The position numbers were made by a program, and so were the translations under genes. From Escherichia coli (lineage in GTDB: Bacteria > Pseudomonadota > Gammaproteobacteria > Enterobacterales > Enterobacteriaceae), in the NCBI RefSeq assembly GCF_003991155.1, contig NZ_CP031293.1: a DNA stretch of 64,000 nucleotides. One strand, written 5' to 3'. Below are positions 44,106-48,669 of the stretch, piece after piece. The notes beneath the pieces were generated by a model, which did no database searches, was not told where the DNA came from, and was given only the letters and a program-made list of their open reading frames with translations. Position 1 is the stretch's first letter, and each line of letters begins with the position of its first letter.

Positions 44106-46256
44106 TTAACGCCGCCGACGGCGTGGGGATTTCGTTTTTTCTTTCTTTTTAACTATACCTTCAGGGACTTCCGGTTGCTCTATCGGAAATACCGGTAATG
44201 CATCCAGTAGCCGCTTGCCGTAGTTTTTGGTGAGCAAGCGTTTATCGTAAATCACCACTTCGCCCCAGCAACCGTGGCTTCGAATCAGTCGCCCAACCTG
44301 CTGAATCAGGTTAAACGAGGCGCTCGGCAGGCTTTGCACCTCAAACGGATAGCGGTTGAGGCTTTTCAGCCATTCCCCTTCGGTGATCACCACGGGGCTG
44401 TCGATGGGCGGAAAAGCGATTTTGTGGATATGCACCTGGCTGAGCAGATCGCCTTTCAGATCAAGCCCTTCGGCAAATGACTGTAAGCCCACCAGCACGC
44501 TGCGCTCACCGTTGGCGACGCGTTTGCGGTGCAGTTCAACTAAACGGTAACGCGGCTGATCGCCCTGCACCAGCAACATCAGACGTAAATCCGTCACATA
44601 GTCGAGAAAGCGCTGCATCGCCCGTCCGCTGGCAAACAGTACCAACATACCGAGATGTTTTTTGCTCTCCACCTGCTTACGGAAAAAGGCCGCCATTTCG
44701 GCAATATGCTGCTCTTCGTTGTCGAGGGAAGGCTCAACGCGCATCCGGGGAATAACAATTTTGCCCTGTTCGCAGTGGTTAAAGGGGGAATCCAGCGCCA
44801 CAAAACGGTCGCCCGCTTTCTCTTTCAGCCCACTCATCTCCTGCAAACGCGAAAAACTGTTCAGCGAACGCAAGGTTGCGGAGGTAACAATAATGTGCGG
44901 AATACTGCGCCACAGCAGCCTTTCCAGTTGGTCGCTAACACGAATACCCACACAGTGAAACCAGAGATGCAGCTGCCCTTCGCGCTCTTCCCGCGTCGCC
45001 CATTTGGTCACCGGCGCACCGGAAGATTGCGCCAGAGACGCCAGCCGCCAGAGTTTGCTTTGCGCCTCGAACATCCCCAACGCGCGGTTCATCTGCAAAA
45101 TCAACCGATGCAGGCGTACAATGTCATGGCTGCCGGTTTTCTCACTTAAATCGTTAAGAAATAACTCCGCCAGGCCACGCAGCATCTCGGTGAGTTTTGC
45201 CAGCCGCTGGCAGATCTCCAGTACTTCATCAGGCAGTTCGCCCATCGCAAAACGGTGCTCTGCCTCCTGCCCGGCAGGCATGTAGAGGTTGAGAATGTTG
45301 TTTAACGAGGCGATAAGCTCATACAACTCTTCACAATGGGCATTCAAACGTTCAGGGATCGCCAGCGGCGGGATGGTCTTCGGGCGAAACTGCTCCATGC
45401 AGGTAGCGACCAGTTTCGTGAACAAGTCCAGCTGTAGCCGATACCACGGTGCGGTGATTTCTGCACTCATCTCCAGCGCATCCCGCGCCACATCCGGCAG
45501 GTGATGACCTTCGTCCAGCACCAGCAGTAAATTTTTCGGGTCAGGCAATACGGCTTCGCTTTCCATCGCCGCCATCACCAGCGCATGGTTTGCCACCACC
45601 ACTTCCGCTTCCTGAATCTCCCGACGAGCGACAAAAAACGGGCATTCGCGATAGTAATAACAGTTGCGGTTAAGGCAACTGGCCTTGTCGGTGCTCAAAC
45701 GACGCCAGAGATCGTCATCTATAGCGATATCAGTATGATCACGCAGACCATCCCATTTATAAGTGTCGAGATCGCCCTTCAGCTTCGCACAACGTTTTTG
45801 TTCTTCCTGATTGTTCGGCGTCAGTTCGTCGTCAAGAAACGCCAGCAAATCCTGTTGCGTGGGTTCAGTGCTGGCGAGCGCCGTCAGATTACGCGGACAA
45901 ACGTAGCGCCCACGCCCAAAAGCGGCAGTGAATTTAAGATCGGGAATGATCTTTTTCAGCAGCGGTAAATCTTTACTGTAGATCTGATCCTGCAATGCCA
46001 CGTTGGCGGTACTCACCACCAGCGTTTTTTGCTCTTCGCGGGCAATGGCGATGCCAGGGATCAAATAGGAGAGCGTTTTCCCAACGCCAGTGGGGGCTTC
46101 AATCGCCAGATGCCGCCCTTCTTCTCCGGCCAGCGTTTTGGCGACGTCCGCAATCATCTGCCGCTGCGGCGCACGGGGAATAAAGTCGGGGATCTGTTCC
46201 TGAAGCGCCTTATACCAGGCGGCAATTTGCGCTTTAAGCGCGGCGGTTAATGCCAT
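44106..46256 (-). CDS. dinG: ATP-dependent DNA helicase DinG (Fe-S, superfamily 2)
   Basis: 716-aa ORF with Walker A GVGKTLSYL, DEGHH box and Fe-S cysteines. Confidence 0.93.
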   Translation of the reverse strand: MALTAALKAQIAAWYKALQEQIPDFIPRAPQRQMIADVAKTLAGEEGRHLAIEAPTGVGKTLSYLIPGIAIAREEQKTLVVSTANVALQDQIYSKDLPLLKKIIPDLKFTAAFGRGRYVCPRNLTALASTEPTQQDLLAFLDDELTPNNQEEQKRCAKLKGDLDTYKWDGLRDHTDIAIDDDLWRRLSTDKASCLNRNCYYYRECPFFVARREIQEAEVVVANHALVMAAMESEAVLPDPKNLLLVLDEGHHLPDVARDALEMSAEITAPWYRLQLDLFTKLVATCMEQFRPKTIPPLAIPERLNAHCEELYELIASLNNILNLYMPAGQEAEHRFAMGELPDEVLEICQRLAKLTEMLRGLAELFLNDLSEKTGSHDIVRLHRLILQMNRALGMFEAQSKLWRLASLAQSSGAPVTKWATREEREGQLHLWFHCVGIRVSDQLERLLWRSIPHIIVTSATLRSLNSFSRLQEMSGLKEKAGDRFVALDSPFNHCEQGKIVIPRMRVEPSLDNEEQHIAEMAAFFRKQVESKKHLGMLVLFASGRAMQRFLDYVTDLRLMLLVQGDQPRYRLVELHRKRVANGERSVLVGLQSFAEGLDLKGDLLSQVHIHKIAFPPIDSPVVITEGEWLKSLNRYPFEVQSLPSASFNLIQQVGRLIRSHGCWGEVVIYDKRLLTKNYGKRLLDALPVFPIEQPEVPEGIVKKKEKTKSPRRRRR

Positions 46257-46270
46257 GAGAAAACCTGAAA

Positions 46271-46290
46271 TACTGTATAAACAGCCAATA
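46271..46290. promoter_or_regulatory. LexA (SOS) box candidate of dinG, non-canonical (tattggctgtttatacagta on the dinG strand)
   Basis: Plus-strand tactgtataaacagccaata lies 15 bp upstream of the dinG start; it contains CTGT...ACAG half-sites in an unusual arrangement that matches what I recall for dinG. Confidence 0.6.
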
Positions 46291-46426
46291 TTGTGGCATT
46301 TTTCGGTTTTCAGGGGTAATGGTTTTTCTGTTTCTGGAAAGCGGCTCGCAATAACGTTTTCTGGCTGTGGGGTTTTCTCGCAACAGAAGAAACATCATTG
46401 CGTAGTAAAAGACAATGCACGCAGGC

Positions 46427-46708
46427 TTATTGCGCTGGTGGCCATTGCAGGGCGGTATGTAAAACACGCAGTACCGAGAGCGTATCGCCCTCCACTTGGT
46501 AGATCAGCACATAATGCGGCCTGACAACGGCTTCATGTGTACCAGCGACTCGTCCGGCCCGGTACATCTCCGGGCGTTCACAGGCCTGTTCCGCAATGGC
46601 TTCAAATTGATTATCAAGGGCTATTGCCGCTAGCGGATTATCTTTACTGATGTATTCCATGATTTGCTCCCTGTCAGACAGGGACATTGGCTTCCATTCC
46701 AGACGCAT
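46427..46708 (-). CDS. ParE/RelE-superfamily toxin, 93 aa
   Basis: Translation MRLEWKPMSLSDREQIMEYISKDNPLAA...PEMYRAGRVAGTHEAVVRPHYVLIYQVEGDTLSVLRVLH has the ParE-like layout; the start overlaps the upstream gene's stop (TAATG). Confidence 0.75.
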   Translation of the reverse strand: MRLEWKPMSLSDREQIMEYISKDNPLAAIALDNQFEAIAEQACERPEMYRAGRVAGTHEAVVRPHYVLIYQVEGDTLSVLRVLHTALQWPPAQ

Positions 46709-47148
46709 TAATCCCCCTTCAGCAAGGCTTTTTTACGGGCAGCAAATAGACTTTTGGCCTCTTCATGAGAGAGCGCCGGGCGTGGATCGTCAATGGCGGC
46801 CTGTACCTGTTCACGAAACCAGGCGTCATACGCGGCAGCTTCATGAGCTCGTTTTAATGCCTCTGCCCTGTCTGGTCGGGTCGTTTTCTTCTGACCGTCC
46901 GGGTCGTAATGAGAGGCGTCGACTTCAAACCGGGCAATACCAACATCTTTCAGGTAGTTGACAACCGTTTCCAGCCGTTTAAACAAGCGAATTTGCCGAC
47001 TGCGTTGTGCTGCAAGAGGCCGTTCAGTGTGGCCGTATTTCACGGTCAACGACCAGCCTCCCTGGGTGCCAATAACGTGTGCTGCATCCACTACGCCAGA
47101 TTCAACCAGTTTATGTAAGGTTGAGTGATCGATCGTTTCTGGTGCCAT
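46708..47148 (-). CDS. Putative cognate antitoxin / DNA-binding partner of the ParE-like toxin, atypical 146 aa; family unresolved
   Basis: Translationally coupled directly upstream of the toxin. The C-terminal segment (AAYDAWFREQVQAAIDDPRPALSHEEAKSLFAARKKAL) looks like a toxin-neutralising tail; the N-terminal ~90 aa do not show an obvious RHH, AbrB or HTH signature to me. Confidence 0.6.
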   Translation of the reverse strand: MAPETIDHSTLHKLVESGVVDAAHVIGTQGGWSLTVKYGHTERPLAAQRSRQIRLFKRLETVVNYLKDVGIARFEVDASHYDPDGQKKTTRPDRAEALKRAHEAAAYDAWFREQVQAAIDDPRPALSHEEAKSLFAARKKALLKGD

Positions 47149-47304
47149 AATGCGCTAACCTCTTTGTATACGGCATGCAATTTATAATTAAAGATAGCGC
47201 AATTAATAATAAATTGCAGCACCTTAATCGTAAATTGCCCAGGATAAAATTGCGGTAGAAAGAGATTTGTTGCGAATATGCCGGGCATCGCCCGGCATAA
47301 AAGA

Positions 47305-48669
47305 TTACTGCGCAGCGGCAGGTTTACGCGGACGGCGACGGCGTTGTTGTTCGCCTGCCGGTTTGGCATCACCAAGACGACGAGATGTTTTTTCTGCGGG
47401 CTTCGCGCTAGCTGATTTCGCACCACCTTCTCCACGGCGTGGTTGCTGTTGACCGCGACCACCACCTTGCCCACGACCGCCGCCGCCACGTTGCTGGCGA
47501 CCATTCTGGATTGGTTCCGCTTTGATTGACGGGTCCGGCTCATAGCCAGGAATCGCAATGCGCGGGATCTCTTTTTTCAGCAGTTTTTCGATATCACGCA
47601 GCAGTTTGTGTTCATCAACACACACCAGCGACAACGCTTCACCGGTAGCAGCCGCACGACCGGTACGCCCGATACGGTGGACATAATCTTCCGGTACGTT
47701 TGGCAGTTCATAGTTGACCACGTGCGGCAGCTCTTCAATATCCAGGCCGCGCGCAGCGATGTCAGTTGCCACCAGTACACGAATATCGCCCGATTTAAAA
47801 TCAGCCAGCGCACGGGTACGCGCACCTTGCGATTTATTGCCGTGGATCGCCGCACTGCGGATGCCATCTTTATTGAGCTGTTCAGCCAGATGGTTAGCGC
47901 CATGTTTGGTACGGGTAAACACCAGCACCTGCTGCCAGTTCCCTTTCCCAATCATATGCGACAGCAATTCGCGTTTGCGTTTCTTATCAACAAAGTGAAC
48001 ATGCTGGGTCACCTGATCAGACGCGGTATTGCGGCGTGCCACTTCGATTTCCAGCGGGTTGTGCAACAGTTTTTCCGCCAGGGCTTTAATATCGTCAGAG
48101 AAGGTCGCGGAGAACAACAGGTTCTGGCGCTTCGCTGGCAATTTTGTTAACACGCGACGGATATCGTGGATAAAGCCCATGTCGAGCATGCGGTCAGCTT
48201 CATCAAGGACGAGGATTTCAACCTGATCCAGCTTCACCGCATTCTGATGTTCCAGGTCCAGCAGACGTCCCGGCGTTGCCACCAGCACATCAACGCCGCC
48301 GCGCAACTTCATCATCTGCGGGTTAATGCTGACACCGCCAAACACCACCAGCGAACGGATATTCAGGTATTTGCTGTAATCACGGACGTTTTCGCCAATC
48401 TGCGCCGCCAGTTCACGGGTTGGGGTAAGAATGAGCGCACGTACCGGACGACGCCCTTTGGCGTGCGGCTGGCGAGTGATCAGGTGTTGCAACAGCGGCA
48501 GCGTAAAGCCCGCTGTTTTGCCGGTACCGGTCTGGGCGCTGGCCATCAGGTCGCGGCCTTCCAGCACCGCAGGGATCGCCTGCTGCTGAATAGGGGTGGG
48601 TTCACGGTAACCCTGCTCGGCAACGGCGCGCAGGATATCAGGGCTTAAACCCAAAGAATCGAAAGACAT
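47305..48669 (-). CDS. rhlE: ATP-dependent DEAD-box RNA helicase RhlE
   Basis: 454-aa ORF with Q-motif, Walker A (AQTGTGKT), DEAD box and a basic Gly/Arg-rich C-terminal tail. Confidence 0.93.

Follow-up and report, generated by a model that had tools for sequence, protein, structure and literature searches.

Between dinG and rhlE, on the minus strand of a 64,000-nucleotide stretch of the Escherichia coli contig NZ_CP031293.1 (this whole stretch is referred to as the window), two small genes are preceded by an intergenic region in which GCAATT-type sequences are repeated in both orientations. This raises the question of whether the repeats serve as a regulatory site for the two genes and, if so, which protein would read them. 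From the comparative evidence presented here, we estimate a probability of about three in four that positions 47176–47218 form a combined operator and promoter for a two-gene toxin-antitoxin (TA) cassette of the ParE type, autorepressed by its antitoxin.

A two-gene ParE-type cassette between dinG and rhlE

An earlier note on this DNA had proposed a ParE-type module at this position, and such a module is indeed present, consisting of an antitoxin with a PaaA2-type tail and a 93-aa toxin of the ParE/RelE family (Table 1). The two genes form an antitoxin-first bicistron, in which the start of the toxin gene overlaps the stop of the antitoxin gene by one base, and the 922-bp cassette comprises these two genes only, without a third gene. 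For the toxin, the nearest solved structure was ParE2 of E. coli O157 (5cw7_B, E 1e-6). The antitoxin matched the Pfam family PaaA2 over residues 104–130 (E 4e-10) and the solved PaaA2 chains (PDB 3zbe and 5czf) over residues 102–145 (E about 1e-7), while residues 6–83 gave a weak match to the NCBIfam entry ParC (NF041544; E 4e-8), with 32.7 bits against a cut-off of 95. The Pfam families PF28031 ('ParC-like') and PF21217 are recorded on close homologues, the former as a precomputed assignment for most of them, among them protein P0001 with its 99% identity. Close homologues of the antitoxin number approximately 900, nearly all of them 143–160 aa long and with the same two-domain make-up, and they are annotated in the databases as 'hypothetical protein' or 'antitoxin PaaA2 family protein'. 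In 67 of the loci that we examined, the gene immediately after the antitoxin homologue encodes a ParE homologue. Relatives of the antitoxin were also present on 232 plasmids (80 of Rhizobium, 53 of Aeromonas and 25 of Xanthomonas among them), all annotated as 'hypothetical protein', and small ColE1-type plasmids of Aeromonas and E. coli encoded the N-terminal domain only, with a length of about 80–90 aa.

According to our alignments, the equivalent of the cassette in K-12 is the N-glycosidase gene ybiA together with a REP element, while UPEC 26-1 carries a third allele of the dinG–rhlE interval with nothing but a ybiA remnant. The cassette was found in 324 of 5426 complete E. coli genomes (~6%), in every one of them on the chromosome and at the same site, and E. 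whittamii has it as well. Its right edge is a GC-rich hairpin located 3' of the rhlE stop codon, which is common to K-12. At the other end of the operon, a weak terminator-like hairpin (46419–46435, minus strand) overlaps the toxin stop codon and may end the TA transcript ahead of the dinG promoter. Immediately upstream of dinG, at about 46272–46287 of the window, there is a LexA-box-like CTG-N10-CAG sequence, TACTGTATAAACAGCC, which is identical in K-12 and corresponds to the known SOS box of dinG.

Table 1. Features of the dinG–rhlE interval, in positions of the window, and upstream elements of the antitoxin family
Feature	Position	Strand	Remarks
dinG	44106-46256	minus	
TA cassette, ~922 bp (promoter, antitoxin and toxin)	about 46356-47277		from the alignment with K-12 and UPEC 26-1
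ParE-family toxin gene, 93 aa	46427-46708	minus	Pfam ParE_toxin, E 1e-13
Antitoxin gene, 146 aa	46708-47148, ATG at 47148	minus	residues ~1-100 ParC-like N-domain, ~102-145 PaaA2-type helices
Shine-Dalgarno-like AAGAGG	47159-47164	minus	10 nt before the antitoxin ATG, read from the sequence
Inverted repeat I1, distal arm, TTAATTATAAATTGCA on the gene's strand	47176-47191		contains the third half-site, ATTGC at 47181-47177
Candidate -10, TATCTT	47191-47196	minus	17 nt after CTGCAA, directly after HS2; predicted
Core palindrome, 19 bp, GCAATTAATAATAAATTGC; on the gene's strand GCAATTTATTATTAATTGC	47199-47217		half-sites HS1 47217-47213 and HS2 47203-47199
Inverted repeat I1, proximal arm, TGCAATTTATTATTAA on the gene's strand	47203-47218		overlaps HS1 and the palindrome centre
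Alternative promoter	47206-47234	minus	-35 TTTACG 47234-47229, 17-nt spacer, -10 TATTAT 47211-47206; 9/12, consensus scan
Candidate -35, CTGCAA	47214-47219	minus	overlaps HS1; position of the family-wide TTGCAA; predicted
R2, upstream copy, GCAATTTA	47232-47239 (GCAATT 47233-47238)	minus	21 bp upstream of HS1; I2 and D3
R1, upstream copy, GCAATTTT	47247-47254 (GCAATT 47248-47253)	minus	D4
GC-rich hairpin, TATGCCGGGC-gat-GCCCGGCATA	47277-47299	minus	repeat search and K-12 alignment
rhlE	47305-48669	minus	stop codon 47305-47307
Upstream element, E. coli			TGCAATTTATTATTAATTGCG
Upstream element, Serratia			CGCAATCTATAGTAAATTGCA
Upstream element, Pseudomonas			TTGCAAACTATTATTGATTGCG
Upstream element, Rhodoferax			TTGCAATTTATTGTTAATTGCG
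Upstream element, a Rhizobiales genome			TTGCAAATTATAATTGATTGCA

A palindrome upstream of the antitoxin and its relatives

On the plus strand, positions 47177–47217 read GCAATTTATAATTAAAGATAGCGCAATTAATAATAAATTGC. The repeats gcaattta and taaattgc that the earlier note had reported are present exactly as written, at the start and the end of this sequence, and they do lie upstream of the 146-aa gene, 29–69 nt from its ATG. In the repeat search they were part of the inverted repeat I1, whose arms of 16 nt each are complementary at 15 of 16 positions (94%) and stand 11 nt apart. Within the 128-bp intergenic region (47149–47276; 34% G+C), none of 1000 dinucleotide-preserving shuffles reached an inverted repeat with 15 matches. 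Five copies of GCAATT/AATTGC are spread over 47177–47253, and five or more were reached in 2 of 20,000 shuffles of the same 128 bp (P ~1e-4). Direct repeats of 22 bp and 21 bp were also detected in the region. The inverted repeats are beyond chance.

Between the two outer repeats, in what the earlier note had called an AT-rich segment, lies a 19-bp palindrome, GCAATTAAT-A-ATAAATTGC. Its exact form, GCAAT-N9-ATTGC, occurs once in the 64-kb window, namely here. The distal copy ATTGC at 47181–47177 is a direct repeat (D2) of the right half of this palindrome, situated 22 bp downstream of it between the -10 and the Shine-Dalgarno-like sequence; together with the upstream copy R2 it makes up an outer inverted repeat that is concentric with the 19-bp palindrome.

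The palindrome was then sought across the antitoxin family in a scan of one genome per species, comprising 78 loci from Gamma-, Beta- and Alphaproteobacteria (377 kb), in which a stretch of 150 nt in front of every full-length homologue was inspected for matches of at least 9/10 to GCAAT-N9-ATTGC. Such matches were present in 38 of 54 upstream regions, where most of them end 29–57 nt before the start codon, although many of the loci are related to one another. Over the entire 377 kb there were 54 matches at this threshold, 41 just upstream of an antitoxin homologue and 13 elsewhere, the latter against approximately 11 expected at random (by arithmetic, 31/4^10 per position). In Escherichia, Erwinia, Pantoea, Serratia, Photorhabdus, Pseudomonas, Rhodoferax, Propionivibrio, Curvibacter, a Rhizobiales genome and plasmids of Rhizobium and Klebsiella, the sequence (T)TGCAAT-N9-ATTGC precedes the antitoxin homologue by 30–60 nt (examples in Table 1). 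Among the plasmids, Rhizobium etli p42e and a Klebsiella plasmid have a 9/10 match, and a Rhizobium leguminosarum plasmid has, in the same place, only a degenerate palindrome with the right half AATCC. Some Photorhabdus loci carry inserted DNA between palindrome and gene: a GC-rich repeat-like element in L013 and L055, where 172 nt separate the palindrome from the antitoxin start, and an insertion in L022 that brings the distance to ~440 nt. Another copy of the palindrome is present in L013, ~1 kb further upstream.

For an analysis by column we used 18 lineage representatives, picked by eye, whose flanking sequences could not be aligned. In these, the palindrome columns carried 1.2–1.9 bits of information compared with ~0.1 bit in the flanks, and conservation extended to columns outside those that anchored the alignment (A8 in 18/18, T12 in 17/18 and the T preceding G1 in 15/18). 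The dyad pairs 1–19, 2–18, 3–17 and 4–16 were complementary in 16–18 of the 18 representatives, and positions 6 and 14 covaried, being T/A in eight and C/G in four. Mirror complementarity combined with paired changes is characteristic of sites that a symmetric dimer recognises. The same comparisons show that the palindrome is conserved at a fixed place relative to promoter-like hexamers and to the antitoxin start.

The third half-site had a narrower distribution. When one mismatch was allowed, 9 of 22 representatives had an ATTGC-like half-site at the exact +22 bp offset, namely E. coli, E. whittamii, two Erwinia species, Pantoea, Serratia, Photorhabdus, the Klebsiella plasmid and Curvibacter; in Pseudomonas and most other members of this set it was not found. 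In the inverted repeat of the earlier note, a third half-site restricted to one clade is thus matched with the farther half of a universal palindrome. The proposal that the repeats are a plausible autoregulatory operator gains support from the family-wide comparison, but its core is the inner 19-bp palindrome and not the outer pair.

Within Escherichia, we compared six alleles of the intergenic region, which differ at ~16 true variable sites in 47149–47276, none of them in the palindrome or in the arm with the third half-site; by arithmetic, the chance of such avoidance is ~0.006, or (93/128)^16. Five palindrome columns that had appeared as variable in the raw count were a MAFFT artefact of a 22-bp duplication in E. 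coli GF43. The upstream copy R1 (GCAATTT) is intact in all six alleles and absent from the representatives outside Escherichia. R2 is mutated to ACAAT in E. coli GF43 and to AGAAT in E. whittamii, and no conservation of it was found outside Escherichia among the representatives compared. Since both copies are unconserved beyond Escherichia, and R2 is mutated in two of its alleles, we set them aside as uncertain candidates for further operator sites. The duplication in GF43 (L086, NZ_CP172127.1) is a tandem one, TAATTGCGCTATCTTTAATTAT, at the equivalent of window positions 47177–47205; between the palindrome, which is intact, and the third half-site it places an extra ATTGC half-site and a second TATCTT. 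Slippage on the direct repeat of 22 bp is its probable origin, and it would represent a natural operator variant.

Promoter candidates and competing explanations

Two candidate promoters could be read in the region (Table 1). The pair CTGCAA/TATCTT is, judged by its hexamers, a weak promoter, with a degraded -35 in E. coli that matches at 3 of 6 positions. Across the 18 representatives, the base next to the palindrome is T in 15 and the one preceding it is T in 13, which gives TTGCAA at this place, and nearly all lineages have a TAnnnT-like hexamer at motif positions 20–27 (for example TAGCAT, TATCAT, TACAAT, TATAAT, TATCCT or AATAAT). The consensus scan preferred TTTACG/TATTAT, the -10 of which lies inside the palindrome. 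The earlier note mentions -10-like hexamers, and two, TATTAT and TATCTT, do exist on the strand of the gene; TATAAT (47183–47188) is on the wrong one. Both promoters are consensus predictions and both are overlapped by the palindrome, so a protein bound to it would occlude RNA polymerase in either case; the third half-site would lie near the predicted transcription start.

The mechanism that we propose runs as follows. A dimer of the 146-aa antitoxin would use its ParC-like domain at the N-terminus to recognise both GCAAT half-sites, with the left half over the -35, the right half abutting the -10-like hexamer and the third half-site 22 bp, or about two helical turns, downstream. Further copies of the antitoxin could settle on the third half-site and possibly on the upstream copies. 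Occupancy by the antitoxin would occlude RNA polymerase and shut the operon off, while the C-terminal PaaA2-type helices would hold the ParE toxin, which may in turn tune the repression. The identity of the binder, the contact by the N-domain, the repression and its modulation by the toxin are all parts that we infer.

Could the conserved sequence instead be a promoter and nothing else, composed of the -35 TTGCAA, an AT-rich spacer and an extended -10 with TG, so that the palindrome would be a by-product without a dedicated repressor? The conservation of TTGCAA at the -35 and of a -10-like hexamer after the motif would fit this explanation, as would the right half-site of the enterobacterial sequences, which yields a TG just upstream of AATAAT-type hexamers. 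In most lineages, however, this TG is displaced by one base from where an extended -10 would have it. In sigma-70 promoters the sequence of the spacer is unconstrained, but here strong conservation extends to the columns of the spacer, which form a mirror image of the -35 half (pairs 1–19 to 4–16, A8 and T12), and neither the third half-site at +22 bp nor the repeats specific to subfamilies are promoter features. We therefore regard a promoter without an operator as unlikely. Less likely again is a palindrome bound by a regulator of the host or another unlinked protein. Such a regulator would be in keeping with an antitoxin N-domain that has no known DNA-binding fold, but the site moves with the two-gene 922-bp cassette across three proteobacterial classes, on chromosomes as well as plasmids, the exact motif is unique in the window and occurs outside the module at the random rate in the loci scanned, and the type of repeat changes with the antitoxin subfamily.

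A further possibility is that the outer inverted repeat acts at the level of RNA, as a hairpin in the 5' leader that controls translation or mRNA stability. The 74-nt leader can fold at -16.6 kcal/mol with both arms paired, yet this is no better than for shuffled sequences (z = -1.09; 32 of 200 shuffles were equally or more stable), Rfam returned a sub-threshold miRNA match only, and most lineages have the palindrome ahead of the -10, where it would not be transcribed, and lack the third half-site, all of which makes an RNA hairpin very improbable. Finally, the repeats might have arisen by chance, since the intergenic region has 34% G+C and DNA of such composition is often rich in short AT-rich repeats; this idea is contradicted by the local dinucleotide shuffles (0/1000 and 2/20,000) and decisively rejected by the conservation across lineages, and we give it next to no credence. 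An operator read by the antitoxin thus remains the explanation that we prefer.

The ParC-like domain as presumed DNA reader

Several lines of evidence point to the N-terminal domain of the antitoxin as the binder of the palindrome. PaaA2 needs the separate protein PaaR2, and the cassette has no third gene while its antitoxin has ~100 extra residues. The site also accompanies the module through three proteobacterial classes and on both chromosomes and plasmids. In addition, a sister subfamily of antitoxins (155–161 aa, N-terminus MHTLTLEQLRATT) carries another repeat in the corresponding position, TTAATTGTTA, 13–14 nt, TAACAATTAA. Members of this subfamily (loci L066–L079) come from Photorhabdus, Pseudomonas, Bordetella, Burkholderia, Caulobacter and Xanthomonas; the arms of their repeat (TTGCAyGTTAATTGTTA, 13–14 nt, TAACAATTAA) flank a -10-like hexamer, and its CAATT core is oriented opposite to that of the E. 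coli family.

Some standalone ParC-like genes without a toxin carry related palindromes on their promoters, and this too argues for the ParC-like domain as the reader. The proteins in question, of 100–118 aa, have the ParC-like domain including an invariant RPDR..ALKR motif. In Achromobacter, the gene is preceded by GCGCAAT-GATA-ATTGCGC followed by TATCAT, in Ramlibacter by GCGATTAATGTTAGATTTG followed by TAGAAT, and in a metagenomic operon by TTGCAAATATTTGGTATTTGCG. Palindromes of the GCAAT/ATTGC type were thus seen at three standalone loci (L062, L076 and L092), in one of them with a spacing of 4 nt as opposed to 9 nt, and were not found at four others (L061, L063, L093 and L084).

To what fold the N-domain belongs was approached by structure prediction. 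An AlphaFold2 model from 22 close homologues reached a pLDDT of 52 and was discarded; with a 109-sequence alignment from an exhaustive profile search the pLDDT was 94.8. In the latter model, the N-domain consists of a helix (8–17), three strands (20–29, 31–38 and 41–46), a basic loop at 47–58 (AQRSRQIRLFKR), a second helix (59–69) and a strand at 75–77, and the PaaA2-type helices are predicted at 94–120 and 128–145. R54 is invariant and R91-P92-D93 nearly invariant among 109 diverse members of the family, which counts 1173 cluster representatives at E < 1e-3. Foldseek searches with the N-domain model returned nothing below E 1e-3, the best PDB matches being eL38 and the FtsH N-domain. Searches of viral models gave matches to unnamed proteins only, searches of PHROGs gave families of unknown function only, and no ribbon-helix-helix (RHH) match from Pfam or NCBIfam was found in the antitoxin. 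The N-domain is not of the ribbon-helix-helix, helix-turn-helix, AbrB or Phd/YefM type. Our literature search found no characterised fusion antitoxin of the ParC-like/PaaA2 kind and no function for the ParC-like domain, nor did it find binding, footprint or transcription-start data for the module or any homologue. On balance, we lean slightly towards the view that PF28031 is a previously unrecognised sequence-specific DNA-binding alpha/beta fold, similar to eL38 and the FtsH N-domain and marked by the conserved basic loop and the RPDR..ALKR motif, that reads GCAAT half-sites and acts as the autoregulatory module of a large family of ParE antitoxins and of standalone ParC-like proteins.

The name of the family calls for a comparison with other ParC proteins. 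Residues 6–83 of the antitoxin resemble the ParC-like proteins of PF28031 and of NF041544 ('ParC family partition-associated protein'), the latter at the 32.7 bits given above against its cut-off of 95. ParC of the Myxococcus plasmid pMF1 is an all-helical protein (PMC7843461), and we dismissed it as an unrelated protein rather than a relative of the N-domain. For plasmid pRA2, parC has been reported as probably non-coding (PMC3235114).

Among characterised TA systems, the closest in its proteins is paaR2-paaA2-parE2 of the E. coli O157:H7 prophage CP-933P. Like the cassette described here, it has a ParE2-type toxin and the antitoxin gene ahead of the toxin gene, and the ParE2-binding helices of PaaA2 align with the C-terminal 45 residues of the 146-aa antitoxin (E 1e-7). 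PaaA2 itself, the prototype, has no domain for DNA binding; its regulation falls to a distinct repressor of the helix-turn-helix type, PaaR2, the sites of which are 18-bp palindromes of the GTTTAGTAA type (PMC8630535). The two systems differ in several respects: PaaA2 is 63–71 aa long, whereas the present antitoxin has 146 aa with an extra domain of ~100 residues; the known system has three genes and this one two; and the putative operator here is GCAAT-N9-ATTGC. The cassette thus lacks what defines a three-component PaaR-PaaA-ParE system, namely a separate paaR gene next to an antitoxin devoid of a DNA-binding domain.

Autorepression through a palindrome that overlaps the promoter is textbook TA biology. 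Operators of the classical parDE type resemble the one proposed here in preceding an antitoxin-first operon and in having palindromic or repeated half-sites over the -35, the -10 and the transcription start, the latter elements being predicted in our case. In these classical type II systems, an antitoxin of the RHH, helix-turn-helix, AbrB or Phd type binds a palindrome over its own promoter, as documented for ParD of RK2 and ParD2 of Vibrio cholerae (PMC10776004). Their DNA-binding folds are established, in contrast to the module predicted here, which has none of them, and the N-terminal ribbon-helix-helix that marks the antitoxin of a ParD/ParE system is likewise not present. The element itself is therefore ordinary; what is new is an uncharacterised ParC-like fold, presumed to be the DNA reader, fused to a PaaA2-type tail.

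In E. coli, ~6% of complete genomes have the cassette in place of ybiA, as a polymorphism. For the family, the comparison yields a precise operator consensus, TTGCAAT-N9-ATTGC, for a widespread and uncharacterised group of ParE antitoxins, whose DNA-recognition module, as we infer it, would be a domain without structural precedent among antitoxins. The cassette also stands as a two-gene counterpart of the three-gene PaaR-PaaA-ParE systems, and a comparison of the two could reveal how modules for regulation and for neutralisation are shuffled. If the ParC-like domain does read the palindrome, it would add a new class to the few DNA-binding domains of antitoxins and would link the split PaaR/PaaA arrangement to a fused one.
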